Shown: positions 699 through 29,542, counted from the first letter of the stretch. The stretch is DNA of 64,000 bases from an uncultured bacterium (GCA_947651225.1 CANSYK010000007.1:6784-70783); one strand, 5' to 3'. Program-made: numbers and translations. The notes: generated from the letters alone by a model not told the origin.

Positions 699-746
699 AA
701 AAGCCTACCACCCTTTCAGCCTGCAATTTTAACAATATTAGTTTTT

Positions 747-1247: not shown

Positions 1248-1252
1248 AACTT

Positions 1253-1885
1253 TTATTCTCTTTCTGTAGCAATTTCTTTGTTATTGCCTTTTTTATACAC
1301 TAAACTATAATATAATTTGTGAAATTTTTCTACCTTTCGAAGCACACAAATTGCCCCTGTTGCAACAATTACACCAACTGAATTTAAAATAAAATCATCA
1401 ATGTCACATACTCTATTTGCATAACCTGTCAACAAATCAATACAAAACTGTGCTAGTTCAATCCCAAGCGATATCATACTCCCATAAAGGGCTATCTTCT
1501 TCATTGATATCCTGTCTATCAGTAAATAAAGAAAACATGGCATAGGCATTAACATAATTATATTTCCTGCCATCTGATAAATATTACCTTCTGTCAAATA
1601 TTTACATATTGAACGAAACGGAATCAGCTGAGAATATATTTTCCATGATTGTCTGGCAGATGAACCATAAAATTCAATTAATTCCTTTTTGCCATAAATA
1701 AATATCGGTAACATTGTATAATCTATCAAAGCAAGCAAATAAAACACAAATACCGGATAAATCCAGTATCTTCTTCTTTGCCTTTCCCCAAAAATAAAAT
1801 ATTTAACAATATAAATCATCATAGACACTATAAAAAATAACAATAAAAAATCATGATTATCTAAAGCGATAATAGTAACATCCAC
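1253..1885 (-). CDS. VanZ-like family membrane protein
   Basis: 210-aa polytopic ORF. Its C-terminal GIELAQFCIDLL...NRVCDIDDFILNSVGVIVA matches the VanZ E-x-x-Q ... R-x-x-D-x-x-D-x-x-x-N-x-x-G pattern. Confidence 0.65.
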   Translation of the reverse strand: MDVTIIALDNHDFLLLFFIVSMMIYIVKYFIFGERQRRRYWIYPVFVFYLLALIDYTMLPIFIYGKKELIEFYGSSARQSWKIYSQLIPFRSICKYLTEGNIYQMAGNIIMLMPMPCFLYLLIDRISMKKIALYGSMISLGIELAQFCIDLLTGYANRVCDIDDFILNSVGVIVATGAICVLRKVEKFHKLYYSLVYKKGNNKEIATERE

Positions 1886-2361: not shown

Positions 2362-2530
2362 TTTATGCCTCACTTTCAACATGTTGAATTCTCCGGTTTC
2401 TTATATAATTTATCCCCCAAAAAACATTTTAGCTGAACTGTGTCATATGCCTTTTGAAAATATATTTTAGTAATTCTGTCTAATGCTCTTTTGTAATATT
2501 TGTGTTATAATAACTTTGGCTTTTATTTAC

Positions 2531-2578
2531 AGCGTTCTTTTCACAAATAATATCTCTTATTTGAAAAGAACGCTTTTT
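2531..2578 (+). terminator. Conserved hairpin, copy A (13-bp stem AGCGTTCTTTTCA/TGAAAAGAACGCT) with a T-run on the + strand
   Basis: Perfect inverted repeat 2531..2543 / 2562..2574, followed by TTTTT. Its minus-strand 5' arm is the 3' end of the 22-aa uORF. Confidence 0.5.
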
Positions 2579-2625
2579 ACAATTTTTTCTCTGTAAATAT
2601 TTCCAATACTATCCCTATAATACAT
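2557..2625 (-). CDS. 22-aa upstream ORF (candidate leader peptide), copy A: MYYRDSIGNIYREKIVKSVLFK
   Basis: The ATG is preceded by GGGAGGTGAGAGA (strong SD). It lies about 45 nt downstream of a TTGACA-17-TATTAT promoter. The ORF is conserved in all three cassette copies. Confidence 0.45.
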   Translation of the reverse strand: MYYRDSIGNIYREKIVKSVLFK

Positions 2626-2669
2626 TCTCTCACCTCCCTCCCCATATAAACATTTCATCATTTTGCAAC

Positions 2670-2698
2670 ATAATATGACCATAAAGCTAATTTGTCAA
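2670..2698 (-). promoter_or_regulatory. SigmaA-type promoter (TTGACA-17 nt-TATTAT) driving uORF copy A
   Basis: Read on the minus strand: -35 at 2693..2698, -10 at 2670..2675. Confidence 0.55.
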
Positions 2699-2763
2699 TA
2701 CAAAAATATCAATGTTTTTTTTTTTAACATTATCAACTTATATTAAAATATATAATTTTAATC

Positions 2764-2791
2764 TTGCATTTTAATTACTTTGTGTTATAAT
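2764..2791 (+). promoter_or_regulatory. Promoter of blaI-like copy 1 (TTGCAT-16 nt-TGtTATAAT)
   Basis: -35 at 2764..2769 and -10 at 2786..2791, with TG two nt upstream. An ACTATAGT palindrome lies in the 5' UTR at 2812..2819. Confidence 0.55.
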
Positions 2792-2870
2792 ACTTAATAA
2801 AAAATTATACCACTATAGTATAATGCACTTTCCTAATAAGTAAAAATATTTAATAGAAATGGAGCAATGA

Positions 2871-3257
2871 ATGAAAACAAAAAAATTGACAAAGAACCAG
2901 TTAGATATTATGAAGGTTTTATGGAAAAGCGAAAAAGCATTATCTGCATCTGATATTGCGAAAAACAACCCTTCCCTGAACCTCAACACCATCCGTTCCT
3001 GTTTACAGACAATGTTAAAAAACGGTGTAATTGTCGTGGATGATGTTGTATACAGCGGAACTGTTTTATCACGCAGCTATAAACCCGTACTTACTGCCGA
3101 AAAATATATTGCAGACAATTTTTCAGGAGTGACAAAAACCTTTTCTGCTCCTGCAATCATTGCAAATCTGATTGAAGAGGAAGACAATCTGGAAATCATT
3201 GATGAAATAGAAACTTTATTACAAAAGCGTAAAAGGGAAATCAGGGAGGGAAACTAA
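2871..3257 (+). CDS. BlaI/MecI/CopY-family winged-helix repressor, copy 1
   Basis: 128 aa. The N-terminal LTKNQLDIMKVLW...SASDI...LNTIRSCLQTMLKNG winged-helix region and C-terminal dimerisation helix fit the Penicillinase_R family. The stop overlaps the start of the M56 gene (TAAATG). Confidence 0.85.
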   Translation: MKTKKLTKNQLDIMKVLWKSEKALSASDIAKNNPSLNLNTIRSCLQTMLKNGVIVVDDVVYSGTVLSRSYKPVLTAEKYIADNFSGVTKTFSAPAIIANLIEEEDNLEIIDEIETLLQKRKREIREGN

Positions 3258-4254
3258 ATGAGCAAACCATCGTATGGCTCTGTTTCAAACTGTATTGTAG
3301 TCACAAGTTTTCTTATGGCATATTTGCTGATTCTGAATAAGAAAAAGAATTTTATACTGAAATACGGGACAGGTACTTTTCTTGCACTGGCTCTTTTTTT
3401 GATTCTGCGTACACTCCTGCCTTATAACTTTCTTTTTTCACATAATATACTTTCAAAAAAGATTCTTCCTCCATTCTTTGACGTTATTACGTACAAACTA
3501 TTTGGATTATTCTCCCTTATGGATATCTTTGTCTGTACATGGATTTCAGGATTCCTGATCCAATTGGTACAGCTTACCGTAGACCAATACCGGTCTGTTC
3601 CATCCATCCATCTTACTGCCGGATATGAACTTTTCCGAAAAGGAAGCAAAGTACATAATAAAACATGAACTGGAACACTTTTACCACCATGATTTATGGA
3701 TTCGTTTCTTTTGTGAATTCATGGTCTGTATGTACTGGTGGAATCCGCTGGCATATCAGATGAAACGCCAGGTAACAGAGGCTCTGGAATTTTCCAATGA
3801 TTTTTCTATCACAAAGGAAATAGGGGAACTTGAAAAATTAGATTATTTAGACTGTCTGTTAAAGGTTGCCAAAAACCGGCCATACTCTCCGAAAACACCT
3901 TCCCTATACTTTTCAGAGAATGATGCTTCCATGCTAAAACAGAGAACTCTTTTTGTTCTATATCATAAGCATACCAAAAAAGATAAAGCCAATTTTGTAC
4001 ATTTTGCTGCTATTGCTGCCATTATACTGTTATCATTTCTGTTTGTAGTAGAACCCAGTTCTACCCCACAGGAAATCTTAGATACCACAATGTCATTAGA
4101 TATTGACCACACATTTTTTATTGTAAATGGACAGGGCTATAATGTTTATTTCCACAATCAATATATTGCACCAATAGATACCCTAAATTCATTTCCCGGC
4201 TATACTGTATACAAAAACAAGGAGGGGGCAAAACAATATGAAGAGATTAAATAA
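3258..4254 (+). pseudogene. BlaR1/MecR1-type M56 metalloprotease sensor, disrupted copy (137-bp deletion and frameshift)
   Basis: Track ORFs 3258..3668 and 3625..4254 together match the intact 377-aa paralog at 13515..14648, minus 137 nt lost between two TACCGGT repeats. The HELEH zinc motif is retained in the second ORF. Confidence 0.8.
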
Positions 4255-4300
4255 ATTAACAATATTATTTTCTTTAAACCAAAATTTATTCTTACTATAA
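4238..4300 (+). pseudogene. Truncated remnant of the 77-aa exported-peptide gene
   Basis: It has the same ATGAAGAGATTAAATAAATTAACA start as 14632. It then jumps to sequence equivalent to 14951 onward. Relative to copy 3, 285 bp are missing between two ATTATTTT repeats. Confidence 0.5.
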
Positions 4301-4495
4301 TATTTCAAGAAGCTATCCTTTCTAAAGATAGTTCCCCTTTTCAATCCATTCTAATTTAAAGACCGACTTGGTATTCTTAAATCGTATATTTATCTCGTGT
4401 TTTAACACACAGAACTTAAGAAACTGCAAGTAATGTGACAAAAAAGCCCATTATTGACCGTTTCTAAAAAATACGAAAGAAGCGAGGTCTTTTAT

Positions 4496-4825
4496 ATGAA
4501 TTTAAAACAAGTTGGCAAAAATGTGAAAGCATGCAGAAAAGAACATCACCTTACACAGGGCCAGTTAGCAGAGCTGGCAGAAGTTTCCGTAAACCACATA
4601 TCACACATTGAAAATGGTTCAGTTGCCATGTCTTTAGAATCCCTGCTTTCGATTTGTCGTGCTTTAAATGCAACACCAAATGACATTTTATTAGGAGAAT
4701 ACTTATATCCTGATGTGGATGATATGCTTTTTAAGGAGCCTTCCAACCATCTGAATTTTGATGACAAAATCCTTCTCCAGAAAATTTTTCAATATATGGA
4801 GGAACGCCGGCAAACTGAAGAATAG
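4496..4825 (+). CDS. XRE-family helix-turn-helix regulator, copy 1
   Basis: MNLKQVGKNVKACRKEHHLTQGQLAELAEVSVNHISHIENG is a canonical HTH_3 motif. A GAGG RBS lies 9 nt upstream of this ATG. The longer TTG start in the track is unlikely. Confidence 0.8.
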   Translation: MNLKQVGKNVKACRKEHHLTQGQLAELAEVSVNHISHIENGSVAMSLESLLSICRALNATPNDILLGEYLYPDVDDMLFKEPSNHLNFDDKILLQKIFQYMEERRQTEE

Positions 4826-4833
4826 AAAGGTTA

Positions 4834-5020
4834 CTATTCACGGCTGTTTTTAGAAAATAGTCAAACTCGTTGTGCTTGCACATAAGAGGGTGATTATTTT
4901 CTAAAAACAGCGTGTAGGCTGTTCTAAACATCATAAGGAAAACAAAAGCTGCTGTTTTTGCAGCGCCAGACGGCATAGCCGGATGGTTTTTCGCATGATG
5001 TTTAGAATAGCCGTGAATAG
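4834..5020. repeat. 187-nt nested inverted-repeat element (three long helices) between convergent genes
   Basis: Outer pair: CTATTCACGGCT 4834..4845 with AGCCGTGAATAG 5009..5020. Inner perfect 13-bp pair: 4846..4858 with 4896..4908. A 17-bp pair with one G-T: 4918..4934 with 4995..5011. A solo left end occurs again at 58544..58555. Confidence 0.6.
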
Positions 5021-5073
5021 CAACATAGAAAGAACAAGCTAAACTGCCCACTGTGAAAAACAAAAAACTATAT

Positions 5074-5943
5074 CTATTCCATCAAATACAGATACACATC
5101 CTCCAGATTAGGGCGTGCCTTACACACTTCCCCACAAGGCGGATATCCATCCGATACAAGGTACAGGGCAGCCTTTTCTGGTGTCAGCATAATATTTGTA
5201 ATCTTATCCTCTGACTTTTCATAATACTGCTGTTCCTCCTGTGTCACTAACACCTCAAACACCCTGCCTTCCATGTCTTCCAGCAGCTTTTGGGGAGTCC
5301 CCTGTGCCACGACCTCACCTGACTTCATAAAAAGAAGTTCTTTAGAAATATACTCAACATCAGAAACCACATGCGTTGCCAAAATCACAATTTTATCTTT
5401 TGAAATCTCACTGATAAAATTCCGGATACGGATGCGCTCCTTCGGATCAAGTCCCGCTGTCGGCTCATCCATAATCAGTATTTTAGGATTATTAAGCAGC
5501 GCCTGCGCAATCAGGATACGCTGTTTCATCCCGCCAGAATAATGCTTTAGCTTTTTATGCTTATCCTGTTTCAGGTTCACAACATCCAAAAGCTCCCCAA
5601 CCGCCTCTTTTGCCTCTCTTTTCTTTAACCCCTTCAAAGCTGCCATATACCACAAAAACCTTTCCCTAGTAAAATCTTCGTAAACCCCCTGCTGCTGCGG
5701 CATATATCCAAGTAACCCCCTATAATCCGCTCCCAGCTTTCCAATTTCTGTCCCATCCAGTAAAATTTTCCCGCTGTCTGGTTCCAGATTCTCCGTAATC
5801 ATATTCATCAACGTGCTTTTTCCAGCCCCATTTGGTCCTAACAGTCCATAAACACCCGGCGTAAAACTGACATTAAAATCTTTTACCGCATAGGTTTTTC
5901 CTTTATTATAACTTTTCTTAATCCCCTCTAATACAAGTTCCAT
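5074..5943 (-). CDS. ABC transporter ATP-binding protein (ABC-2 exporter type)
   Basis: Walker A GPNGAGKST, signature YSGGMKQR and Walker B LIMDEPTAGLD. The start is placed at MELVLEGIKKSY. Confidence 0.85.
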   Translation of the reverse strand: MELVLEGIKKSYNKGKTYAVKDFNVSFTPGVYGLLGPNGAGKSTLMNMITENLEPDSGKILLDGTEIGKLGADYRGLLGYMPQQQGVYEDFTRERFLWYMAALKGLKKREAKEAVGELLDVVNLKQDKHKKLKHYSGGMKQRILIAQALLNNPKILIMDEPTAGLDPKERIRIRNFISEISKDKIVILATHVVSDVEYISKELLFMKSGEVVAQGTPQKLLEDMEGRVFEVLVTQEEQQYYEKSEDKITNIMLTPEKAALYLVSDGYPPCGEVCKARPNLEDVYLYLME

Positions 5944-6009
5944 ATACACACACCCTTTCTTCGCTGCCTGTGGCATAAGCCATTGCTTTCGCAGCTTTTC
6001 GCAACACTG

Positions 6010-7710
6010 CTATAACAGATAAATGAATAACATATTGATATCCCATCCAAAATGGTACAATACCATAGCAATCACACCTGCACATCCAACTCCGGCAAAT
6101 ATAGCAGGCAGTTCCCCTTTTATTGTTTTTGACAATTTTATCCCTGCAAAGCAAATTGCAAAAAAGCTCAATGCCTTTAGCAGAAATAGTAATGCAATCA
6201 TGCATCCCAGAGGCATACTGACAGAAAATGCCACGTTTGTAATATCACAAAGCTTCTGCCCGGCAGTAGAAAAACCATCAATCTTAGCATAGCGCAGAAA
6301 AAGGGGAAGTTCCATCACCAAAAACAAAATCCCTGTACATACTGACACACAACAGGCTCTGCTCCGGTTTAGCCGTTTCCTCCCATTTCGTGTTGAACGA
6401 AGCAGGTTTTGCATCTTCTTTTTTTCATCCAATGCATAGATTCCACTAATCAAGTATATAATCATTGCCGCCCCAAAAAACCACAATGTAATATCCGTTT
6501 TGGTATCCTGCCACAAATCCCCATATGCCATCTCATCCAACAGATATTTTTCTTTTATGTCCCCTTTCTTTTCCTGCAGCTTTTCAAGCTGCTCCTGAAC
6601 CAGTGAAAACGCCTCTTCATAACGCTCCAGTTCTGCCATAATCATAATCCTTCTTGTTTCATCTGCATCAGAAGTACCGTCAATCTGCGTCAGCTCATCC
6701 CATTTTTTCTGCAGGGACTCCTCTTCCTCTTCCATAAATGAAAATGTTTCCTCCGTAACAAGCCCCCGAAGCCTTCCCATATAATAATGGTAGGAGGCCT
6801 CCCTCGCCGTAGCATAATATTCCTGCCCATACACACCATGGATTTCATAGATTCCCCAGATAAATAAAAGGGCAAGTACAATCCCCTTTTTCTGCTGCAC
6901 TAATATTTTATAAAATTCATAATAAAGCAGCCCTGTATGCCTTCCCAAAAAACCTGTCCTGCCACGCAGCCACTGAAGAAAAACTTCAATCCTTCCGTCA
7001 GTCCTTATCTGGCAGGTTTTATGAAATGCAAAAATTCCCACAGCGCCAAGAACAGGCACAAGCAAACCTGCCACAAACCCGGCACAAAGATTCTTCCCCA
7101 CCGGATATCCCAGAATATTCAGGTTATAATACTCCCCCAAAAGTTGCCTTATGTCCCAGCAGTAAAATGGATTCACGCATTTTACTCCCCCAAAGGAACC
7201 ACTGATGGAAAAAAAATGGCTGATACTATATTCTGTCCCAAGCAGAATTCCTGCCAGTGCCGCCGCCGTAAACTCATTTTTAATAAGCATCCCAATACAA
7301 AACAATACGCATGCAAACAACACTGCTATCACAGCACGCACCAAAATCGATACAACAAGCATCTTGCCGACTGACAAAGAATAGATACAGTTGCGGAATA
7401 TAGAAAGGGACTGGACTGCCCTCCCCAAATTTCCATAACCATACATCCACCCCAAAAGCAAAACAGCGCTTCCTTCTATTAAAACAGTATAAAAAAATGC
7501 CCCCAAAACCATTACTGAAAGCTTTGCAGCCGCCAATGGCATGTGCCCTTTCCGGCTTCCCTTTAACAGCAAAATAAGGCTCATATCCCTTTCATAAAAA
7601 AGAACATAATAGGTAAGAACAGCAAGAAATACCAATACAAACAGCACACTGCCATTATAGTATACCAATGCATTCAGCCCAAAGCAGCTTCCTGCCTCTC
7701 CTTGTCCCAT
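6010..7710 (-). CDS. ABC exporter permease with a central coiled-coil/acidic soluble domain (probably lacks its first TM, see 7674..7928)
   Basis: 566-aa polytopic ORF immediately upstream of the ATPase gene. TM clusters lie at both ends, with an EEEEESLQKKWDEL...EQLEKLQEKK segment in the middle. Confidence 0.6.
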   Translation of the reverse strand: MGQGEAGSCFGLNALVYYNGSVLFVLVFLAVLTYYVLFYERDMSLILLLKGSRKGHMPLAAAKLSVMVLGAFFYTVLIEGSAVLLLGWMYGYGNLGRAVQSLSIFRNCIYSLSVGKMLVVSILVRAVIAVLFACVLFCIGMLIKNEFTAAALAGILLGTEYSISHFFSISGSFGGVKCVNPFYCWDIRQLLGEYYNLNILGYPVGKNLCAGFVAGLLVPVLGAVGIFAFHKTCQIRTDGRIEVFLQWLRGRTGFLGRHTGLLYYEFYKILVQQKKGIVLALLFIWGIYEIHGVYGQEYYATAREASYHYYMGRLRGLVTEETFSFMEEEEESLQKKWDELTQIDGTSDADETRRIMIMAELERYEEAFSLVQEQLEKLQEKKGDIKEKYLLDEMAYGDLWQDTKTDITLWFFGAAMIIYLISGIYALDEKKKMQNLLRSTRNGRKRLNRSRACCVSVCTGILFLVMELPLFLRYAKIDGFSTAGQKLCDITNVAFSVSMPLGCMIALLFLLKALSFFAICFAGIKLSKTIKGELPAIFAGVGCAGVIAMVLYHFGWDINMLFIYLL

Positions 7711-7928
7711 TTATAATATTCCTCTATATCTGCGGTCTCGTCCCCCTGCAAATACGCCTCATACCGTTCCCGCTGCTCATGTCCATAAAAGAAACGGTCT
7801 GTATTTTTTTCATAGGCATATAGTGTCAAAAGGTTTCCTGCCAATAGAAGAACGGAAAATACGATAAATAATTTCTTTTTCCCTAATTTAATCCATTCAT
7901 ATTTTAAAACTTCCATATCATCAACCAT
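7674..7928 (-). CDS. 84-aa single-TM protein; likely the N-terminal segment of the permease, separated by a -1 frame change
   Basis: MEVLKYEWIKLGKKKLFIVFSVLLLAGNLL resembles an ABC-2 permease N-terminus. It overlaps the 566-aa ORF by 37 nt. Its start overlaps the lipoprotein stop (TAATG). Confidence 0.5.
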   Translation of the reverse strand: MVDDMEVLKYEWIKLGKKKLFIVFSVLLLAGNLLTLYAYEKNTDRFFYGHEQRERYEAYLQGDETADIEEYYKWDKERQEAALG

Positions 7929-9223
7929 TAACCCTCATACTTAATATCTGTCATTTCAAAAGCAGAACCATGGTAGCTTCCGATTTTACTTTTATCCCAA
8001 TACGAAACCCCCCACTCTGTTTCTGACTCTTCTTCTGTCTCCTTCTCTCCCCCTGTTTCCTTCTCAGACTCTGCCTTTTCATAGATGATATACATATATT
8101 CTGCATTTCCAACAGCCGACTCCCCAAAAGATGAATCAAATGGCAATGTGACAGTATCTACTAATGTCAAATCTTTGTCATATATCTTATAAGTCCCTGT
8201 CCCTTCTACTTTTCCCGACAATACCATATTGACATTTGACAGATAAAGATATTTTCCATCACTGCAAAAATACAGCCCCTGTTCAATTCCTTCCATAAAG
8301 ACTTCTATATGAGAACCATCCAAATCTGCCGTATACCATGTCCTTAAATCCTTATCTTCTTTCTTAAAATCATATGGACTAAAAAGCAGCTTGTCCTGCC
8401 AAAAGGCTATTCTTTGAATCCTGTAGTTTTTTGGCATATCTGAAAGAGCAAGTTCCCTAATCTTCCCCTCCTTCATATCATAAATAAACATCTTTAAATA
8501 CAATTTATCCAAAAAATTATCATCCGTAGTTTCTTCTTCAGATTTTATCTGGACATGAATTTGAAAATAAAGAAAATTACCATATGCCTGCAGGTCTGCC
8601 AAAGTAAATACATCCATATCTTTATCAGCAATATACACGTTTTCTGGTTTCTTGACATTATCTGTTAAAGAAAAGAACTTAATAGCAAACTGCTCCTCTG
8701 TTCCATCCTTATCTGACAAATATGTATGCTCTGTATAATAAATCACATCTCTGTGTACAATCCACTCTTCAATATTGACAGTATCCTCCCACTTATAAAC
8801 CTCTTCCCTTTTCATCCCATCAGCAGATACACGACATAAAACAGGACCAGAAAGAATTCTGCTGTCCACATAATATAAATAACCGTTACAGTATATAATT
8901 CCTGTATTAACCGCTTTTGTTTCCATATAAGCATTGCACTCCTGCATCTTTTCTAAATCAGTTTCCTTATCATGGAGACAGTCTGCTTTCCCACAGAGCG
9001 GAAGAAGCGTATCGCTTCCCTCATCTAAATAATAAAGATAATGCTCCTTTGCAAAATATTGCACGCCTGCCCCCTTCTGATGAAAGGCTAAAAATTCATA
9101 TCTTTCCATATACTGGTAATCACTGCCCTCGTGATAGGTGTCTGGAAGACTTTTACTACATCCCGTCAGAAAAAAGCAAATCACAGCCAATATTGTTATC
9201 CTATACCATTTAGTCCTTTCCAT
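7928..9223 (-). CDS. Lipoprotein paralog 1, Cys-rich N-terminal module plus beta-propeller-like repeats (DUF5050-like)
   Basis: Lipobox FFLTGC after the signal peptide. CGKADCLHDKE...ECNAY, and repeated [YF]-[YL]-Y blades (GYLYYVD, VIYYTEH, NFLYFQ, KYLYLSN). AGGAGG RBS. Confidence 0.6.
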   Translation of the reverse strand: MERTKWYRITILAVICFFLTGCSKSLPDTYHEGSDYQYMERYEFLAFHQKGAGVQYFAKEHYLYYLDEGSDTLLPLCGKADCLHDKETDLEKMQECNAYMETKAVNTGIIYCNGYLYYVDSRILSGPVLCRVSADGMKREEVYKWEDTVNIEEWIVHRDVIYYTEHTYLSDKDGTEEQFAIKFFSLTDNVKKPENVYIADKDMDVFTLADLQAYGNFLYFQIHVQIKSEEETTDDNFLDKLYLKMFIYDMKEGKIRELALSDMPKNYRIQRIAFWQDKLLFSPYDFKKEDKDLRTWYTADLDGSHIEVFMEGIEQGLYFCSDGKYLYLSNVNMVLSGKVEGTGTYKIYDKDLTLVDTVTLPFDSSFGESAVGNAEYMYIIYEKAESEKETGGEKETEEESETEWGVSYWDKSKIGSYHGSAFEMTDIKYEG

Positions 9224-9451
9224 GCTCCCCTCCTAATAGCTCATATTTGTATTATTGAATTCCTACATCAATAAGGATACAGACAATTCCTCCTAAGAAA
9301 CAACGAAGCCCGAAATACATCTATATCCTTATAAAATCTCTAAGCAGCAAAATCAATATAAAAATTATCAAAAAAGGATACAACCTCAATCTATCCGATT
9401 TTTTAAAATTCTCTACTCTGAAGCCGCTTTTAAATTACTTTTTAAAATTTC

Positions 9452-9874
9452 TTACTTCAATATTGTATTTGTAAGAATCTCTCCAATATGTGTATCATCA
9501 TTCCAAGTAGTTTTCTCATATGATGCTGAATGCTCCCCTGCAGCACCGACTACATTAGCATCATCAACCTTTTTCTCTGCAAAGGCAGTAGTACCACCTA
9601 TATTATTAGTTTTTACTGCTTCAGAACGATACCTCTTCTCTCCAAGTTTATAATATGCAATAGCTTTTGCCCTTATGAAACCTGGACGAGAAAGGGTAGT
9701 AGTCGCTTTTGCTCCGCTTTGGTCTTTTGATATTCTTCCACCTGCATTTAAAGGATTTGGTGCTGTTGTCGGTTTAGGAGGCTCTAACGCATTCGCTGTC
9801 ATCCCAAAACCTGCTACAGCCAGAGAAAGGCTAAGCAAAACCCCTGTTGCTACTTTTATAATCTTTTTATACAT
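9452..9874 (-). CDS. Small secreted protein paralog 1 (Sec signal, about 110-aa mature domain), function unknown
   Basis: MYKKIIKVATGVLLSLSLAVAGFGMTANA is a signal peptide with an A-x-A site. GGAGG RBS. It is a paralog of 12293..12709. Confidence 0.6.
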   Translation of the reverse strand: MYKKIIKVATGVLLSLSLAVAGFGMTANALEPPKPTTAPNPLNAGGRISKDQSGAKATTTLSRPGFIRAKAIAYYKLGEKRYRSEAVKTNNIGGTTAFAEKKVDDANVVGAAGEHSASYEKTTWNDDTHIGEILTNTILK

Positions 9875-9954
9875 ATTTATTTCCTCCATTCACAAAATTT
9901 TTAATGATTTTTTCTAACATTTATGTTACAATAGGCTTGGTTTCTTAATTTATG

Positions 9955-10000
9955 GCGTTCTTTTCGTATGTACTATTCTTACTTGAAAAGAACGCTTTTT
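9955..10000 (+). terminator. Conserved hairpin, copy B (GCGTTCTTTTC/GAAAAGAACGC) with a T-run on the + strand
   Basis: Inverted repeat 9955..9965 / 9985..9995, then TTTTT. Confidence 0.5.
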
Positions 10001-10047
10001 ACAATTTTTTCTCTGTAAATATCTCGAATACTATCCCCATAATACAT
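9979..10047 (-). CDS. 22-aa upstream ORF, copy B: MYYGDSIRDIYREKIVKSVLFK
   Basis: The ATG is preceded by GGGAGGTGAGAGA. The stop codon sits in the hairpin loop. It lies about 100 nt upstream of secreted-protein gene 1. Confidence 0.45.
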   Translation of the reverse strand: MYYGDSIRDIYREKIVKSVLFK

Positions 10048-10091
10048 TCTCTCACCTCCCTCGCCATATCAACTTATCACCATCTTATAAC

Positions 10092-10120
10092 ATAAGACGA
10101 CCATAAAGCTAATTTGTCAA
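10092..10120 (-). promoter_or_regulatory. Promoter (TTGACA-17 nt-TCTTAT) driving uORF copy B and secreted protein 1
   Basis: -35 at 10115..10120, -10 at 10092..10097 (minus strand). Confidence 0.5.
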
Positions 10121-10185
10121 CACAAAAATAGTAATGCAATATTTTTAAACTCTATCAATTTGCATTTAATAATATGCTTCCAATA

Positions 10186-10213
10186 TTGTATTTTAATTTT
10201 TTTGTGCTATAAT
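10186..10213 (+). promoter_or_regulatory. Promoter of blaI-like copy 2 (TTGTAT-16 nt-TGcTATAAT)
   Basis: -35 at 10186..10191, -10 at 10208..10213. ACTATAGT palindrome at 10234..10241. Confidence 0.55.
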
Positions 10214-10293
10214 ATTTAATAAAAGAGCGTACCACTATAGTGACGATACCCCTTTCTAACAATTAAAAATATATAGCAGAAATGGAGCAATGA

Positions 10294-10680
10294 ATGAAAA
10301 CAAAAAAATTAACAAAGAACCAGTTAGATATTATGAAGGTTTTATGGAAAAGTGAAAAAGCATTATCAGCATCCGATATTACGAAAAACAACCCTTCCTT
10401 GAACCTCAACACCGTCCGTTCCTGTCTCCAGGCAATGCTAAAAAACGGCGTAATTGTTGTGGATGATGTCGTATACAGCAGGACTGTTTTATCACGCAGC
10501 TATAAACCTGTACTTACAGCTGAAAAATATATTGCAGACAATTTTTCAGGAGTGACAAAAACCTTTTCTATTCCTGCAATGATTGCAGATCTGATTGAAA
10601 AGGAAGACAATCTGGAAATCATTGATGAAATAGAAACTTTATTACAAAAGCGCAGAAGAGAAATCATGGAAGGAAACTAA
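10294..10680 (+). CDS. BlaI/MecI/CopY-family repressor, copy 2 (no cognate sensor)
   Basis: 128 aa. It is near-identical to copies 1 and 3, with a handful of substitutions that are mostly C-terminal. Confidence 0.85.
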   Translation: MKTKKLTKNQLDIMKVLWKSEKALSASDITKNNPSLNLNTVRSCLQAMLKNGVIVVDDVVYSRTVLSRSYKPVLTAEKYIADNFSGVTKTFSIPAMIADLIEKEDNLEIIDEIETLLQKRRREIMEGN

Positions 10681-10733
10681 AAAACTAAACCATCATATGG
10701 CTCCGCTTCAAACTGCATGATAATCACAGTTCC
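10681..10733 (+). pseudogene. About 50-nt stub of the M56 sensor gene 5' end
   Basis: AAAACTAAACCATCATATGGCTCCGCTTCAAACTGCAT aligns to ATGAGCAAACCATCGTATGGCTCTGTTTCAAACTGTAT at 13515. The start codon is lost. The stub abuts the 3' end of lipoprotein gene 2. Confidence 0.5.
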
Positions 10734-10739
10734 TAACCA

Positions 10740-12020
10740 CTACCCCTCATACTTAATATCTGTTATTTCAAAAGCAGAGCCATCATAACTTCCGATTTTG
10801 CTTTTATCCCAATAGAAAATACCCCATTCTCTTTCTTCCTCTTCTTCCGTTTCCTCCCCATCGGGTTCCGCTTTTTCATAAAGAATATACATCATTTCGG
10901 GCGTCCCAATCCCCACATCACCATAAGGCGCTTTAAACGGCAGCTTAACGGTATCTACCAGCTTAAGATTCTTATCATATATTTTATAGTTTGCATCTCC
11001 CTTATCATATCCCCTGCATACCATATTGAGGTTTGACAGGTACAGATACTCCCCATCACTAAGAAACATCAGGCCTTGTCCAATATCTTCCATAAATATC
11101 TCTGCATTAGAACCATCTAAATCCGCAATATACTGGGACACTGGTTCTAAAAATTCTATATGCGGATTATACGGACCAAAGACTATCTTCCCCTGCCAGA
11201 ATGTTACTCCCTGTATCACCTCATCCTTTCCCAAATCCGGAAGGGTAAGTTCACTGACTTCATCCTTTTTCATATCGTAAATAAAGGTTTTCATATACTG
11301 ATATTTTAAATAATTATCATCCGTAACTTCTTCTTCCGTTTTTTTCTGGGCATGGACCTGAAAATACAAATAATTGCCGTATGCCTGTGGATGGGCTACT
11401 GTAAATACGGTCAGGTTCTTATCCACCTCATGTACCACCTTTGGCTTTTTCACATTTTCTGATAAGGCAAGGGATTTTAACGCATACCGTTCTTCCGTCT
11501 CACTTTTTCCTGCCAGATACTTATGTTCTGCATAATAAAAAACATCCCTGTGGATGATCCACTGTTCAATGCCAATATTGTCCTCCCACTCATAAACCTG
11601 TTCTTTTTTCATGCCATCTGCGGACAAACGGTATAACGCAGGAACATCTGAAATATGGTTCTCCACATAATACAGATATCCATTACAAAATGCAATCCCC
11701 GTATCTCTCGCCTCTGTTTTCGTATAAGCATTGCAGTTTTGCAGTTTCTCTGTATCCGTTTCCCTGTCATGCAGACAATCAGCTTTCCCACACAAAGGAA
11801 GAAGCTGGCTGCCTTCTTTATCCATGTAATAGATATAATGGCCATGCAAAAAATAATGTACTTTCTCTCCCTCTTGATGATAAGCATTAAAAGACTGTTT
11901 TTCCATATACTGGTAATCACTACCCTTCTGATAGGTGTCTGGCAAATCACCACCACAACCTGTCAAAAAAAAGGAAACTAACATTGTCATAATAACCTTA
12001 TACCATTTTATATTTTCCAT
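10740..12020 (-). CDS. Lipoprotein paralog 2 (DUF5050-like beta-propeller)
   Basis: Start placed at MENIKWYKVIMTMLVSFFLTGC (GGAGAGGGAG RBS). It is collinear with 7928..9223 and shares the conserved C-terminus YWDKSKIGSY-GSAFE-TDIKYEG. Confidence 0.6.
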   Translation of the reverse strand: MENIKWYKVIMTMLVSFFLTGCGGDLPDTYQKGSDYQYMEKQSFNAYHQEGEKVHYFLHGHYIYYMDKEGSQLLPLCGKADCLHDRETDTEKLQNCNAYTKTEARDTGIAFCNGYLYYVENHISDVPALYRLSADGMKKEQVYEWEDNIGIEQWIIHRDVFYYAEHKYLAGKSETEERYALKSLALSENVKKPKVVHEVDKNLTVFTVAHPQAYGNYLYFQVHAQKKTEEEVTDDNYLKYQYMKTFIYDMKKDEVSELTLPDLGKDEVIQGVTFWQGKIVFGPYNPHIEFLEPVSQYIADLDGSNAEIFMEDIGQGLMFLSDGEYLYLSNLNMVCRGYDKGDANYKIYDKNLKLVDTVKLPFKAPYGDVGIGTPEMMYILYEKAEPDGEETEEEEEREWGIFYWDKSKIGSYDGSAFEITDIKYEG

Positions 12021-12292
12021 ACTCCCTCTCCTTTTATAATTTATACAATAAAAAGGCGCAGTGCCCACGCTGGTACTATTTCCTATAACATAATAAAATC
12101 CCGCAGCAAGCTAAACGTAATATCCAGTTTTCTTATGTAACAAACTGCGGGATATCCTATATACACCAATTTTAGAACATGCTAAATATTCACCTATAGT
12201 GCGCAGTATAATACTTAAAAGCTATGGATTTCTTGTCTCCATAAAAGGAAAAATAGCTATTATATTTCCTACTTTCTTCACCAATGCTTTTC

Positions 12293-12709
12293 CTATTGTG
12301 GTATTGCATCATCATATATCGTACCAACATTTGTTGTATCATCCCATCTTGTTGCACCATATGTTACATGATGTTTTCCCATACCACCTTCCACATCAGC
12401 ACCACCAACTTTTTTCTCTGCTGTAGCAGATGTTCCACCTATATTATTGGAATTAGTCGCTTGGGAAGAGTACCTGAATTTCCCACTCCAATAATACACT
12501 ATCGCTGTTGCTTTTATAGTCCCAGGCCGTGAAAAGGTAGTAGTAGCCGTTGCGCTCTTACTATCAATCGATATCCTTCCGCTTGCATTTAAAGGATTTG
12601 ACGGCGTAGTCGGTTTACCCTTTGCATCCGCTGTCATCCCAAAACCTGCTACAGCCAGAGAAAGGCTAAGCAAACTCCCCATTGCTGCTTTTATAATCTT
12701 TTTATACAT
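12293..12709 (-). CDS. Small secreted protein paralog 2
   Basis: The signal peptide MYKKIIKAAMGSLLSLSLAVAGFGMTADA is nearly identical to paralog 1. The mature part is diverged. Confidence 0.6.
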   Translation of the reverse strand: MYKKIIKAAMGSLLSLSLAVAGFGMTADAKGKPTTPSNPLNASGRISIDSKSATATTTFSRPGTIKATAIVYYWSGKFRYSSQATNSNNIGGTSATAEKKVGGADVEGGMGKHHVTYGATRWDDTTNVGTIYDDAIPQ

Positions 12710-12789
12710 AGTTATTTCCTCCATTCTCAAAATTTTTAATGATTTTTTCTAATATTTATGTTACAATAACCTCGGTCTCTTAATTTATG

Positions 12790-12835
12790 GCGTTCTTTTC
12801 GTATGTACTATTCTTACTTGAAAAGAACGCTTTTT
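12790..12835 (+). terminator. Conserved hairpin, copy C
   Basis: Inverted repeat 12790..12800 / 12820..12830, then TTTTT. Confidence 0.5.
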
Positions 12836-12882
12836 ACAATTTTTTCTCTGTAAATATCTCGAATACTATCCCTATAATACAT
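12814..12882 (-). CDS. 22-aa upstream ORF, copy C: MYYRDSIRDIYREKIVKSVLFK
   Basis: Same SD, frame and stop position as copies A and B. Confidence 0.45.
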   Translation of the reverse strand: MYYRDSIRDIYREKIVKSVLFK

Positions 12883-12926
12883 TCTCTCACCTCCCTCCCC
12901 ATATAAACCTTTCGTCATTTTACAAC

Positions 12927-12955
12927 ATAATATACCCATAAAATTAATTTGTCAA
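12927..12955 (-). promoter_or_regulatory. Promoter (TTGACA-17 nt-TATTAT) driving uORF copy C and secreted protein 2
   Basis: -35 at 12950..12955, -10 at 12927..12932 (minus strand). Confidence 0.55.
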
Positions 12956-13020
12956 TCCGCAATTAATAACACAATATTTTTTAATACTTTCAACTTATAT
13001 TAAAAAATATATTTCTAATC

Positions 13021-13048
13021 TTGTATTTTAATTCTTTTGTGCTATAAT
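13021..13048 (+). promoter_or_regulatory. Promoter of blaI-like copy 3 (TTGTAT-16 nt-TGcTATAAT)
   Basis: -35 at 13021..13026, -10 at 13043..13048. ACTATAGT palindrome at 13069..13076, flanked by TGCAC repeats. Confidence 0.55.
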
Positions 13049-13127
13049 ACTCAATAAAGGAGTGCACCACTATAGTATGATGCACTTTCCTAACGATTAA
13101 AAATATATAGCAGAAATGGAGCAAAGA

Positions 13128-13514
13128 ATGAAAACAAAAAAATTAACAAAGAACCAATTAGATATTATGAAGGTTTTATGGAAAAGCGAGAAAGCATTAT
13201 CCGCATCTGATATTGCGAAAAACAACCCTTCCTTAAACCTCAACACCGTCCGTTCCTGTCTCCAGGCAATGCTAAAAAACGGCGTAATTGTTGTGGATGA
13301 TGTTGTATACAGCGGGACTGTTTTATCTCGCAGCTATAAGCCTGTACTTACTGCCGAAAAATATATTGCAGACAATTTTTCAGGAGTGACAAAAACCTTT
13401 TCTGCTCCTGCAATCATTGCAAATCTGATTGAAGAGGAAGACAATCTGGAAATCATTGATGAAATAGAAACTTTATTACAAAAGCGTAAAAGGGAAATCA
13501 GGGAGGGAAACTAA
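13128..13514 (+). CDS. BlaI/MecI/CopY-family repressor, copy 3
   Basis: Start placed at MKTKKL as in the other copies (GGAG RBS). The stop overlaps the sensor start (TAAATG). Confidence 0.85.
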   Translation: MKTKKLTKNQLDIMKVLWKSEKALSASDIAKNNPSLNLNTVRSCLQAMLKNGVIVVDDVVYSGTVLSRSYKPVLTAEKYIADNFSGVTKTFSAPAIIANLIEEEDNLEIIDEIETLLQKRKREIREGN

Positions 13515-14648
13515 ATGAGCAAACCATCGTATGGCTCTGTTTCAAACTGTATTGTAGTCACAAGTTTTCTTATGGCATATTTGCTGATTCTGAATAAGAA
13601 AAAGAATTTTATACTGAAATACGGGACAGGTACTTTTCTTGCACTGGCTCTTTTTTTGATTCTGCGTACACTCCTGCCTTATAACTTTCTTTTTTCACAT
13701 AATATACTTTCAAAAAAGATTCTTCCTCCATTCTTTGACGTTATTACGTACAAACTATTTGGATTATTCTCCCTTATGGATATCTTTGTCTGTGCATGGA
13801 TTTCAGGATTCCTGATCCAACTGGTACGGCTTACCATAAACCAATACCGGTTTTACCAATTTGTCAAAGAAAGCGAACGCACAACCTGCTATGACGATAT
13901 TCTCCAAAAGCTTATGAATAAGCACAAAAGACACAGAAAAATCCCCATCAGGAAAATGCCTTTCTTAAAAAGCCCCTGCATTACCGGTCTGTTCCATCCA
14001 TCTATCTTACTGCCGGATATGGACTTTTCAGAAAAGGAAGCAGAGTACATAATAAAACATGAACTAAAACACTTTTACCACCATGATTTGTGGATTCGTT
14101 TCTTTTGTGAATTCATGGTCTGTATGTACTGGTGGAATCCGCTGGCATATCAGATGAAACGCCAGTTAACAGAGGCTCTGGAATTTTCCAATGATTTTTC
14201 TATCACAAAGGAAATGGAGGAACTTGAAAAACTGGATTATTTAGACTGTCTGCTAAAGGTTGCCAAAAACCAGCTATACTCTCCGAAAACACCTTCCCTA
14301 TGCTTTTCAGAGAATGCGCCTTCTATGCTAAAGCAAAGAACCCTTTTTGTTCTATATCATAAGCATACCAAAAAAGACAGAGCCTATTTTGTACATTTTG
14401 CTGCTATTGCTGCCATAATATTGTTATCATTTCTGTTTGTAGTAGAACCCAGTTCTACCCCACAGGAAATCTTAGATACCACAATGTCATTAGATATTGA
14501 CCACACATTTTTTATTGTAAATGGACAGGGCTATAATGTTTATTTCCACAATCAATATATTGCACCAATAGATACCCTAAATTCATTTCCCGGCTATACT
14601 GTATACAAAAACAAGGAGGAGGCAAAACAATATGAAGAGATTAAATAA
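13515..14648 (+). CDS. BlaR1/MecR1-type M56 zinc-metalloprotease signal transducer, intact, with a short non-PBP ectodomain
   Basis: 377 aa. It has N-terminal TM helices, HELKH (HExxH) followed by WWNPLAY, a final TM FVHFAAIAAIILLSFLFVV, then only about 70 extracytoplasmic residues. Confidence 0.85.
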   Translation: MSKPSYGSVSNCIVVTSFLMAYLLILNKKKNFILKYGTGTFLALALFLILRTLLPYNFLFSHNILSKKILPPFFDVITYKLFGLFSLMDIFVCAWISGFLIQLVRLTINQYRFYQFVKESERTTCYDDILQKLMNKHKRHRKIPIRKMPFLKSPCITGLFHPSILLPDMDFSEKEAEYIIKHELKHFYHHDLWIRFFCEFMVCMYWWNPLAYQMKRQLTEALEFSNDFSITKEMEELEKLDYLDCLLKVAKNQLYSPKTPSLCFSENAPSMLKQRTLFVLYHKHTKKDRAYFVHFAAIAAIILLSFLFVVEPSSTPQEILDTTMSLDIDHTFFIVNGQGYNVYFHNQYIAPIDTLNSFPGYTVYKNKEEAKQYEEIK

Positions 14649-14865
14649 ATTAACAACATTATTTTTTACTATATCCGGCATCATTTTACTGCAAAATTGT
14701 TTTACCGCTGTTGCCGTCAGAGCAAGCAGCAATGACAACAATGACGAAATCATTACATACTCAGATGATATCGAATGGCGTTATAAACTAATAAATGGAA
14801 AATTGTATAAACGCCAATATAATCATACCACAAAAAAGTGGATTGGCAACTGGATTCCTGCCTAA
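14632..14865 (+). CDS. 77-aa exported peptide, translationally coupled to the M56 sensor gene
   Basis: The ATG overlaps the sensor 3' end by 17 nt. AAGGAGGAGG RBS. Signal peptide MKRLNKLTTLFFTISGIILLQNCFTAVAVRA. The Trp/Lys-rich mature end is DIEWRYKLINGKLYKRQYNHTTKKWIGNWIPA. Confidence 0.6.
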   Translation: MKRLNKLTTLFFTISGIILLQNCFTAVAVRASSNDNNDEIITYSDDIEWRYKLINGKLYKRQYNHTTKKWIGNWIPA

Positions 14866-14906
14866 ACTAAAATACGCTTTTATTCTACCTGTCCATTTTA
14901 TAATTC

Positions 14907-14950
14907 AGGCTGCAAAATAGTAAATCAACTATTTTGCAGCCTATTATTTT
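14907..14950 (+). terminator. Rho-independent terminator after the peptide gene
   Basis: 14-bp perfect stem AGGCTGCAAAATAG / CTATTTTGCAGCCT, then ATTATTTT. Confidence 0.7.
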
Positions 14951-15223
14951 CTTTAAACCAAAATTTATTCTTCCTATAATATTTCCAAAAACCATCCTTT
15001 ACAAGGATAGTTTATCTTTTCAATCCATTCTATTTTAAAGACCGACTTGGTATGCTTAATTTATATATTTATCTCGTGTTATGACACACAGAACGTAAGA
15101 AACTGCAAGTCAAATGTACATACAGGCATATCCACCTGGCTCGTTGTTTTGCGGAAGTACTGTAACAAAAGAAGCCGATTACTGACAGTTTCTATAAAAT
15201 ACGAAAGAAGCGAGGTCTTTTAT

Positions 15224-15553
15224 ATGAATTTAAAACAAGTTGGTAAAAATGTGAAAGCATGCAGAAAAGAACATCACCTTACACAGGGACAGTTAGCAGA
15301 GTTGGCAGAAGTTTCCGTAAACCACATATCACATATTGAAAATGGTTCGGTTGCCATGTCTTTAGAATCCCTGCTTTCGATTTGCCGTGCTTTAAATGTT
15401 ACGCCAAATGACATTTTATTAGGAGAATACTTATATCCTGGTGTGGATGATATGCTTTTCAAGGAGCCTTCCAACCACCTGAATTTTGATGACAAAATCC
15501 TTCTCCAGAAAATTTTTCAATATATGGAGGAACGCCGACAAAACGAAAAATAG
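15224..15553 (+). CDS. XRE-family helix-turn-helix regulator, copy 3
   Basis: Near-identical to 4496..4825, with the same RBS context. The long track ORF starting at 15047 is not supported. Confidence 0.8.
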   Translation: MNLKQVGKNVKACRKEHHLTQGQLAELAEVSVNHISHIENGSVAMSLESLLSICRALNVTPNDILLGEYLYPGVDDMLFKEPSNHLNFDDKILLQKIFQYMEERRQNEK

Positions 15554-17817: not shown

Positions 17818-17943
17818 AGTCTACCTCTTTTCCGTGCCTCTTATGTGTTATTACTTTCAATAACCCTTCGCACTGATTCATTATTTTTTGTGGGAAGCAG
17901 TCTGTTTCACTGCATTCCATATATTACCTCTTTACTGTTGCAT

Positions 17944-17972
17944 ATTATAACACCTATTTCCCTATTTGTAAA
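17944..17972 (-). promoter_or_regulatory. metY promoter (TTTACA-17 nt-TATAAT) with AATAGGGAAATAGG in the spacer
   Basis: -35 at 17967..17972, -10 at 17944..17949. The repeat motif lies at 17953..17965 on the gene strand. Confidence 0.5.
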
Positions 17973-18047
17973 GTAGGTTTATTTCCAAAATATAAACCAG
18001 GGAGGCCATTCCACCTTGTGACACACTCATTTCCATATTAAATTTCA

Positions 18048-19349: not shown

Positions 19350-19399
19350 ATGATCCTCCAATAAAAATATGTTTTTCTATTTTCTTTCTTCCCTCTATC

Positions 19400-29431: not shown

Positions 29432-29542
29432 ATTACATTCCTCCCTTACTTTTGATATTGTTAATATATCACAAATCAAACTGGATTTACTTGCTTTTTT
29501 CTGTATATTTTTATATTATGTTTCTGCCTTTCACACTCTAAA

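Follow-up and report, generated by a model that had tools for sequence, protein, structure and literature searches.

A locus in a stretch of 64,000 nucleotides from an uncultured bacterium (GCA_947651225.1, CANSYK010000007.1:6784-70783) bears on what M56 proteases of the BlaR type sense when they have no sensor domain. The whole of this stretch is here called the window, and its source was placed in a gut Lachnospiraceae chromosome. About 96% of M56 proteins are encoded within 5 genes of a BlaI-like gene, only about 6% contain a transpeptidase (beta-lactam-binding) domain, and the commonest M56 architecture has a tail that is short and undefined (Kurtz et al., J Bacteriol 2026, PMC13492132). 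Sensor-less BlaIR pairs were also described in mycobacteria and Pseudomonas aeruginosa (bioRxiv 10.64898/2026.08.03.742534). The locus of the window possesses a BlaI-family repressor gene, a gene for a short M56 protease and a gene for a small exported protein, named pep77, next to a control block present in three copies; genes for secreted proteins, lipoproteins and an ATP-binding cassette (ABC) transporter lie on the other side of the blocks. With slightly better than even confidence, the locus is read as an atypical, sensor-domain-less switch of regulated proteolysis of the BlaI/BlaR1 type, of the CenIR kind, placed beside an envelope module. It provides testable handles on what such proteases sense.

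A BlaI/M56 cassette without sensor domain

Only at copy 3 of the control block is the cassette intact, with blaI, the short-ectodomain M56 gene, pep77 and a terminator in this order and an XRE gene behind them. The first gene of the operon, blaI-3 (13128-13514, + strand), encodes a repressor of the BlaI/MecI/CopY family. It was identified by PF03965 with 30.7 bits against a cutoff of 22.6, positions 1-113 of the 115 profile positions being covered, and its score for the BlaI equivalog of NCBIfam was 19.8 against a cutoff of 180. The start codon is probably at 13128 rather than at 13116. The co-oriented M56 gene (13515-14648, +) abuts blaI-3 and encodes an intact membrane metalloprotease (PF05569, 112 bits) with the sequence HELKH as its HExxH motif. 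Hydropathy predicts four transmembrane (TM) segments at residues 8-26, 32-50, 76-94 and 292-310, and only 67 residues, forming a C-terminal ectodomain, are left beyond the last one. This short ectodomain is conserved among the pep77-linked M56 proteins. The protein has the Peptidase_M56 domain, with the zinc motif between TM3 and TM4, and lacks the transpeptidase sensor of BlaR1 and MecR1; PF00905 gave no hit, and the score for blaR1_generic of NCBIfam was 75 against a cutoff of 400. The gene pair has the CenIR-type arrangement as defined in PMC13492132, in which a blaI-like gene directly precedes, on the same strand, an M56 gene that lacks a transpeptidase domain. The pairing of BlaI with a short-ectodomain M56 protease, proposed in a preliminary description of this DNA, is thus supported by both profiles and by hydropathy. 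The same description had held that the cue is not a beta-lactam, and a beta-lactam cue is indeed very unlikely because the ectodomain has just 67 amino acids (aa) and no transpeptidase domain was detected.

The pep77 gene (14632-14865, +) overlaps the stop codon of M56 and encodes a small exported protein with a signal peptide and a C-terminal W-R-Y-K..NGKLYKR.YN....WIG.WIP motif. Across the family the motif is D.I.WRYK.INGKLYKR.YN.T..KWIG.WIP; it comprises 30 residues and is extracytoplasmic. An exhaustive HMMER search showed 533 representative clusters, nearly all members being of 60-95 aa with a signal peptide. Neither a Pfam family nor an annotated member was found for pep77 in the collections searched, and plasmids gave no match. 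To follow its genomic context, metagenomes were scanned from an alignment of 11 sequences, and 80 loci with the conserved motif were found. M56 is directly upstream and in the same orientation in 69 of these, and 59 of the 69 have blaI as well. The 11 loci without M56 comprise eight cut at the contig end and three (L101, L142 and L143) having upstream sequence with no detectable M56. At 85% identity the 80 loci fall in five clusters, each containing blaI-M56-pep77, which together with the window, bacterium D16-51 and Oscillibacter valericigenes gives eight lineages with the collinear arrangement. On the basis of this gene order, pep77 is considered a member of the cassette and a true conserved partner of this M56 subfamily, as had been supposed.

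The operon is ended by a strong intrinsic terminator with a 15-bp stem and a T-run (14907-14942, +). The gene of an XRE-family regulator with an HTH_3 domain (15227-15553, +) follows, with a promoter-like site of its own at 14952-14980. This gene was seen only in the window and its close relative, and in 0 of the 80 pep77 loci from metagenomes. Because of this absence, the strong terminator and the separate promoter-like site, XRE is regarded as a neighbour and not as a conserved member of the cassette. The four-gene cassette of the preliminary description therefore holds for blaI, M56 and pep77 and fails for XRE. Between the window and D16-51 (L001 3256-3585), XRE is 94% identical, and BlaI, M56 and pep77 are only 54-61% identical, an unusual degree of conservation of this regulator compared with the genes around it.

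Three control blocks with divergent promoter-like sites

A block of about 400 bp occurs in three copies, at 2470-2870 (copy 1), 9890-10293 (copy 2) and 12731-13127 (copy 3, which precedes the sole intact cassette). The alignment of the copies has a mean column identity of 83%. They were also recovered as three-copy repeat families of 77-94% identity, running on into the downstream blaI genes, so that each block leads to a near-identical blaI gene on its right side. Each copy contains divergent promoter-like sites, a leader and a hairpin. The leftward site is TTGACA-17-TATTAT in copies 1 and 3, with 11 of 12 consensus matches, and TTGACA-17-TCTTAT in copy 2, where the -10 hexamer is degraded. 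In each of the three copies the rightward site is TTG(T/C)AT-16-TATAAT and has a TG upstream, and the two sites stand back to back, 66 bp apart. These sites were called from consensus matches, which do not imply activity. The three intergenic copies, first described as holding two back-to-back promoters each, are hence found again with two promoter-like sites each, the leftward -10 of copy 2 being the weaker one. The putative leftward promoter of copy 2 is at 10092-10120 (-) and would drive the operon which holds a split permease gene; its weakened -10 hexamer suggests that the unit of sec145-1, lipoprotein 1 and permease may be decaying as a whole. GC skew is strongly negative throughout the 64 kb and nearly all long open reading frames (ORFs) are on the - strand, the blaI cassettes being among the few + strand genes and running against the dominant orientation.

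BlaI-family repressors were expected rightward of each block, and PF03965 matched in all three copies. The three paralogues are of 128 aa each. BlaI-1 (2871-3257, +) differs from BlaI-3 by 2 substitutions, and the solitary BlaI-2 (10294-10680, +) by 8. Five of these eight are clustered at residues 93-103, where FSAPAIIANLIEEE is changed to FSIPAMIADLIEKE, and N99D is among them. BlaI of Staphylococcus aureus is cleaved site-specifically at N-F, within its C-terminal dimerisation helix. By alignment, the putative scissile site is A-N-L in BlaI-1 and BlaI-3, A-D-L in BlaI-2 and A-N-F in D16-51. The N99D change of BlaI-2 aligns with the N-F dipeptide of the D16-51 orthologue; BlaI-2 may be cleaved differently or not at all.

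Leftward of the promoter, the leader has a strong Shine-Dalgarno sequence, GGGAGGTGAGAGA, followed by an upstream ORF (uORF) of 22 codons, MYYRDSIRDIYREKIVKSVLFK. The uORF is at 12814-12882 (-) in copy 3, with equivalents at 2557-2625 and 9979-10047. A hairpin with an 11-bp stem spans its stop (12790-12830, -; 2532-2573 and 9955-9995 in the other copies), the last codons of the uORF forming the 5' arm and the stop codon lying in the loop. The hairpin, GCGTTCTTTTC...GAAAAGAACGC, has exactly three occurrences in the 64 kb, one to each block, where 0 were expected; its stems are invariant across the copies and the loops vary. The uORF and hairpin were among the features noted earlier, and both were seen in all three copies, Shine-Dalgarno included. 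In D16-51 the hairpin also precedes the orthologue of sec145, the gene of the secreted protein described below (L001), the N-terminal half of the uORF and the Shine-Dalgarno are kept, and the leader element is retained upstream of sec145 despite an insertion of 92 nt. The uORF peptide was found in no other genera and is confined to the window lineage and D16-51. In attenuators of the leader-peptide (erm/cat) or intrinsic-terminator type, translation of a uORF changes the fold of a hairpin behind it, which either covers the ribosome-binding site of the controlled gene or leads into a U-tract. A canonical attenuator terminator was considered and rejected: there is no U-tract after the hairpin on the mRNA strand, and the T-run sits on the opposite strand. 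The ribosome-binding site of sec145 is about 75 nt beyond the hairpin and is unpaired with it in the predicted fold, whose z-score is only -1.8. No Rfam family matched the leader in an E-value scan of 1-18 kb or in a gathering-threshold scan of the whole window. Sub-threshold hits were restricted to RAGATH-25 and Clostridiales-1, inside or near XRE, and a tRNA scan found none.

Two palindromic elements of the block are candidate operators. An inverted repeat TTTACA-N10-TGTAAA within the uORF (12833-12854; also 2576-2597 and 9998-10019) is invariant in the three blocks and conserved in D16-51, and may be an operator or an RNA hairpin. A palindrome core, ACCACTATAGT, lies just 3' of the blaI -10 (13066-13076; also 2809-2819 and 10231-10241), is likewise invariant in the three blocks and is a candidate autoregulatory operator of BlaI. 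The AT-rich palindromes differ between copies, and no convincing shared BlaI box came out of the palindrome listing or the comparison of blaI upstream regions across lineages. D16-51 has two copies of a promoter element of about 45 nt, AATAAAAAAATAATTC[A/G]AGATTAAAATTTTCTTGAC, which holds a TCAAGA-N9-TCTTGA inverted repeat (L001 5870-5905 and 9020-9060). One is before the gene of a 213-aa membrane protein beside blaI and the other before the uORF-sec145 leader, and the element is a candidate shared operator in that genome.

Genes leftward of the blocks

Leftward of copies 2 and 3 are the genes of two secreted proteins, sec145-1 (9452-9889, -) and sec145-2 (12293-12730, -), which are 61% identical at the amino acid level. 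The likely start of sec145-1 is the methionine of MYKK at 9874. The protein is of 145 aa, and the AlphaFold2 (AF2) model of residues 48-144 is an Ig-like beta-sandwich of seven strands with a predicted local distance difference test score (pLDDT) >92. Foldseek gave no fold match in PDB at E<1e-3. Next to each sec145 gene is a lipoprotein gene. Lipoprotein 1 (7928-9223, -) has a lipobox and the invariant residues C77, C82, H84 and C96; lipoprotein 2 (10740-12020, -) is 58% identical to it (tblastn, aa level) and is followed by no transporter genes. A beta-propeller-like nature had been predicted for these lipoproteins, and the AF2 model is a confident beta-propeller (pLDDT 87.5) for which Foldseek returned generic propellers only. 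The suggestion of DUF5050 (PF16472) was not supported for the window lipoproteins, which gave no hit at E<=0.1, and it is correct at most in a distant sense, as only 2 of 30 family members matched, weakly (best E 6.1e-5). The C-x4-C-x-H-x11-C motif formed by the four invariant residues is present in 30 of 30 aligned members, including a fusion with M56, and may be a structural or ligand metal site in the extracytoplasmic propeller. Sec145, lipoprotein and permease have no family in Pfam or NCBIfam, and sequence profiles found no meaningful relative of permease and lipoprotein in PDB.

Behind lipoprotein 1 lies an ABC permease gene (6010-7928, -), shown by comparison with orthologues to be one gene split in an 84-aa ORF (7674-7928) and a 566-aa ORF (6010-7710). 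The orthologues in D16-51 and other genomes are single ORFs of 685-691 aa. The window gene is short by about 166-169 bp, by which about 56 codons of the first extracytoplasmic loop are lost and the frame is shifted. The coupling of lipoprotein 1 to a permease and an ATPase by a TAATG overlap, as originally described, is thus correct as regards the overlap at 7928, and the 84-aa ORF and the presumed permease are in fact one broken gene. The next gene encodes an ABC ATPase of the DrrA/ABC-2 type (5074-5976, -; ABC_tran), which matches TIGR01188 with E 1.3e-56, below cutoff. It also has sub-threshold scores for TIGR03740 (lantibiotic protection; 149 bits against 309.75) and TIGR03608 (111 bits against 254.85).

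The probable leftward unit of copy 1, of tentative membership, comprises a VanZ-like protein (Pfam VanZ) and a 166-aa membrane protein (747-1885, -) together with a MacB-type permease and ATPase which run off the edge of the window. As seen over window positions 1-1885 (-) and in L062 at 17335-20289, this permease is of 354 aa and matches MacB_PCD weakly, and the ABC ATPase is of the MacB/Lcn972 type (TIGR03608, 212 bits against 254.85). VanZ is whole in the window and split in strain L062. The VanZ/MacB-type genes are possibly a second antimicrobial-resistance-like set under the same control. Several known assignments were tried for these gene sets and discarded. An Lcn972 bacteriocin cluster was rejected, as sec145 and permease have no Pfam or NCBIfam hit (PF09683 was expected) and TIGR03608 is below cutoff; LanFEG/LanI, as permease and lipoprotein have no family hit and the ATPase is below the TIGR03740 cutoff; FtsX, as no profile supported it for the target proteins; and an anti-phage defence system, as PADLOC gave generic HTH and ABC/AAA hits only.

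Distribution of the lipoprotein-ABC module and a fusion with M56

A lipoprotein profile scan with one genome per species gave 60 loci from Lachnospiraceae, Oscillospiraceae and relatives. Permease and ATPase follow the lipoprotein or lipoproteins in all 42 loci with enough downstream sequence, and a sec145 profile placed a family member immediately before the lipoprotein in 28 of 56. A word-index protein search for sec145 had given 5-12 hits, and the family was recovered by profile search of the lipoprotein-anchored loci. At its core, then, the module is an ABC system which depends on a lipoprotein and often has a small secreted protein as partner. Lipoprotein paralogues commonly stand in tandem, 4 of them in D16-51 and 2-3 in other loci. 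The regulators beside the module vary: an extracytoplasmic function (ECF) sigma factor with DUF4367 or a membrane protein was found in 8 loci, and OmpR-type response regulators, XRE-domain proteins and agr-like genes in others. A distant propeller homologue lies by an agr-type set (LytTR, kinase, AgrB, AgrD) on the Lachnospira eligens megaplasmid (L148, NC_012780 44020-58748), where every gene of the cluster of this homologue is annotated 'hypothetical' in RefSeq. Since the module is beside differing envelope-stress regulators in different lineages, it is a probable device of envelope defence or homeostasis of abundant gut anaerobes.

BlaI/M56 genes adjoin the module in four lineages, namely the window, D16-51 (L001), a Lachnospiraceae metagenome-assembled genome from roe deer (L055) and O. 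valericigenes (L057). The link of BlaI/M56 with the secreted-protein, lipoprotein and ABC genes, for which co-occurrence had been named as the check, therefore recurs, and it is reinforced by a fusion protein. In this protein (P0064, 755 aa) the last TM segment of an M56 domain runs straight into a full-length propeller, so the propeller sits exactly at the position of the BlaR1 sensor domain. Over the full length, the propeller shares 35% of its residues with lipoprotein 1 (E 1e-81); a BlaI-like fragment precedes the gene.

Duplication and decay of the locus

Next to block copy 1 the M56 gene is broken in two ORFs (3258-4254, +) by a frameshifting deletion of 137 bp, and a following deletion of about 276 bp takes out pep77 and the terminator. 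XRE was duplicated along with the cassette (4499-4825, +). Judged from its sequence, copy 1 is a decayed duplicate, or pseudo-cassette, of copy 3. On the 3' side of the copy-1 leader are two overlapping small ORFs (2088-2382, -) of 42 aa, with a signal-peptide-like start, and 62 aa; they look like one frameshifted gene of a small secreted protein, and the same split is called in the independent assembly L062. The full layout, with the broken M56 ORFs of copy 1, was also found in L062, and the permease split in six of six independent metagenome assemblies (L062-L067). Because the same architecture is present in independent assemblies, the broken genes are not an assembly artefact.

Block and blaI are 85-94% identical between the copies. 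Nucleotide identity of the lipoprotein paralogues is only 69%, and as proteins the lipoprotein and sec145 paralogues are 58-61% identical. In D16-51 there are four lipoprotein paralogues but only one blaI. From this uneven divergence and the single blaI of D16-51, it follows that the triplication of blaI and block is recent and lineage-specific, laid over an older lipoprotein paralogy. The active diversification suggested earlier from the local triplication, with one intact protease and three repressors, is more aptly called a duplication of blaI and block that is specific to the lineage and accompanied by decay. Elsewhere in the window, and unrelated to the blaI locus, two paralogous genes of about 400 aa (23003-24190 and 28253-29479, -) are 77-79% identical over about 470 bp at the nucleotide level; they are separated by 5.25 kb, with ABC-ATPase-like genes between them at 26594-28129.

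Proposed mechanism and alternative explanations

In the favoured reading as a regulated-proteolysis switch, BlaI dimers would keep the two promoters of every block repressed. The M56 ectodomain would perceive an extracytoplasmic cue from the envelope, other than a beta-lactam, with pep77 as a probable co-receptor and perhaps with the help of the propeller lipoproteins. The cytoplasmic domain of M56 would then cleave BlaI, and the cleavage would derepress blaI-M56-pep77 itself and up to three leftward units: sec145-1 with lipoprotein 1 and the transporter, sec145-2 with lipoprotein 2, and probably VanZ with the MacB-type ABC genes. The response would most likely serve homeostasis of the envelope, or defence against a compound that acts on membrane or wall. 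What is known of BlaI/BlaR1 and the description of CenIR served as the template for these steps. In the present organism the system is partly decayed, with the second cassette a pseudogene, the permease split and the leftward -10 of copy 2 weakened.

Several observations count against such a switch. The putative scissile position of the window BlaIs, A-N-L or A-D-L, is not N-F, a canonical TACA-NN-TGTA box was not found in the block, and the promoter and operator calls are consensus and palindrome matches alone. The uORF and hairpin suggest an extra or alternative layer of control beyond BlaI. At least one output is probably non-functional in this organism, because the permease is frameshifted and has lost 56 codons including the family-invariant Y82 and N112. 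Only about 4 of about 45 module loci have BlaI/M56, the others being beside different regulators, and no lipoprotein module was found near pep77 in any of the 80 metagenome loci; the coupling of module and BlaI/M56 is therefore facultative.

The position of the propeller in P0064 hints at another way of sensing, which we hold possible though rather doubtful: sensor-less, short-tail M56 proteases, which make up the largest class of BlaR-like proteases and the one least understood, may receive the signal by way of extracytoplasmic subunits that have genes of their own, here pep77 and the propeller lipoprotein, as a 'split BlaR1'. In the locus itself, the propeller lipoprotein, pep77 or both would then be ligand-binding subunits docking in trans on the short M56 ectodomain, again a tentative proposal, with the corollary that the lipoprotein genes would be both sensor and regulated output (positive feedback) and the ABC transporter the effector. 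Agreeing with it are the strict collinearity of pep77 with this M56 subfamily, the extracytoplasmic location of its conserved 30 residues and the conservation of the M56 ectodomain together with pep77. However, the fused M56 is of another subfamily, being only 23% identical to that of the window. A propeller is missing from the surroundings of most pep77 cassettes, as is M56 from those of most propeller modules, and the propeller is tied obligatorily to the transporter and not to M56. If true, the ligand-binding parts of the locus would also be tied to a new family of lipoprotein-dependent ABC transporters of gut Clostridia.

It is unlikely, on the other hand, that the neighbourhood is one of adjacency with no regulation, in which a recent segmental duplication of blaI and promoter is decaying and the leftward genes are run by their own leader (uORF and hairpin) or are silent. 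The four independent disruptions (M56-1, pep77-1, the permease and the apparently frameshifted small gene at 2088-2382) would be expected from it, and so would the weakened -10 of copy 2; in D16-51 the leader and sec145 are 3.8 kb from blaI with their own promoter, and the best-conserved stretch of the block is the transcribed leader and not the promoters. Yet the disrupted state is present in independent metagenome assemblies with the remaining ORFs intact, and blaI and block are held at 85-94% identity in three places. The BlaI/M56-module neighbourhood also recurs in distant lineages including Oscillospiraceae, the fusion protein adding to this, and the hairpin has no U-tract on the mRNA strand and leaves the ribosome-binding site of sec145 free in the weakly scored fold. 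The least probable of the explanations, and an improbable one, takes sec145 as a secreted antibacterial and the lipoproteins with the ABC transporter as self-immunity resembling LanI with LanFEG, the paralogue arrays being orphan immunity. A small Sec-exported protein paired with a lipoprotein and an ABC-2-type ATPase, frequent tandem lipoprotein paralogues, the sub-threshold match of the ATPase to TIGR03740, and sec145 and lipoprotein paralogues diverging much faster than the regulator would all suit it. But sec145 belongs to no bacteriocin or toxin family of Pfam or NCBIfam, its model is a plain Ig-like sandwich with no PDB match at the above threshold, and it is missing from half of the modules, while lipoprotein and transporter are invariant throughout. 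There is no dedicated processing or export gene, and neither the permease nor the lipoprotein resembles LanFEG or LanI. The bacteriocin or effector-immunity locus entertained in the preliminary description thus found no positive evidence, either in families (Pfam) or in folds (Foldseek).

Comparison with known systems

The preliminary description knew of no characterised system with this gene set. That applies to the target module and pep77; the regulatory logic is known from CenIR (PMC13492132), and the principle appears to be that of an atypical BlaIR system. In the annotation and literature collections searched, pep77, the M56-propeller fusion and the obligate lipoprotein-permease-ATPase module with sec145 have no family, structure relative or report, the literature giving no description of the lipoprotein/ABC module or of DUF5050 function. 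Nor was there a report of a single protease that would act for three repressor paralogues and as many control blocks, as the gene content suggests here. The meaning of the locus lies in these parts. Pep77 is a candidate co-sensor defining a coherent subfamily of sensor-less BlaIR systems, and the Rosetta-stone fusion ties M56 proteases to the propeller lipoprotein family at the BlaR1 sensor position. The module is widespread in Lachnospiraceae and Oscillospiraceae, and its ATPase is the sole component with a Pfam or NCBIfam family. The arrangement is present in two cultured organisms, bacterium D16-51 and O. valericigenes Sjm18-20.

With BlaI/BlaR1 and MecI/MecR1 of S. aureus and Bacillus licheniformis, the locus shares a Penicillinase_R repressor, a 4-TM M56 protease with HExxH, a repressor operon divergent from the regulated gene and presumed proteolytic inactivation of the repressor. 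It differs in that an extracellular penicillin-binding domain is missing and neither a beta-lactamase nor PBP2a is the target. The third gene encodes an exported mini-protein, whereas MecR2 is a cytoplasmic anti-repressor. BlaIR of Mycobacterium tuberculosis and M. abscessus and PvmSR of P. aeruginosa resemble the locus in an M56 protein with no sensor domain and in an unknown signal. Their output is not beta-lactam resistance, the regulons being energy metabolism and virulence (bioRxiv 10.64898/2026.08.03.742534); they belong to other phyla with other regulons, and no exported mini-protein or lipoprotein/ABC module was described for them.

The target genes resemble LanI with LanFEG and Bce-type modules in having a lipoprotein, an ABC-2-type ATPase and a multi-TM permease near an envelope-stress regulator, and here a VanZ and MacB-type ABC set is also next door. 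Neither sequence nor profile comparison related the permease or the lipoprotein to LanFEG, LanI or FtsX. The permease, which is of the 12-TM class, differs in being a single protein of about 686 aa with two large loops, and the regulator is a protease/repressor pair instead of a two-component system. The lipoproteins share a predicted beta-propeller fold with DUF5050 (PF16472) proteins, and are set apart by their own invariant C-x4-C-x-H-x11-C motif and the obligate context of an ABC transporter.

CenIR of Clostridioides difficile is a BlaIR-family regulator of the cell envelope with no beta-lactam-binding domain and an unknown signal, and its strongest target is an adjacent exported protein of 136 aa, repressed about 500-fold (PMC13492132). 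Like the locus, it has the order of a blaI-like gene and M56, an M56 protein with a short C-terminal tail and no transpeptidase sensor, and an envelope theme. The tail of CenR (residues 334-460) is longer and mostly unstructured, whereas the ectodomain of the locus has 67 aa and is conserved in the subfamily, and no third gene like pep77 was reported for CenIR. The locus further differs in its targets, which are divergent and come threefold, with a propeller lipoprotein and an ABC transporter among them, and in its three repressor paralogues for one protease.

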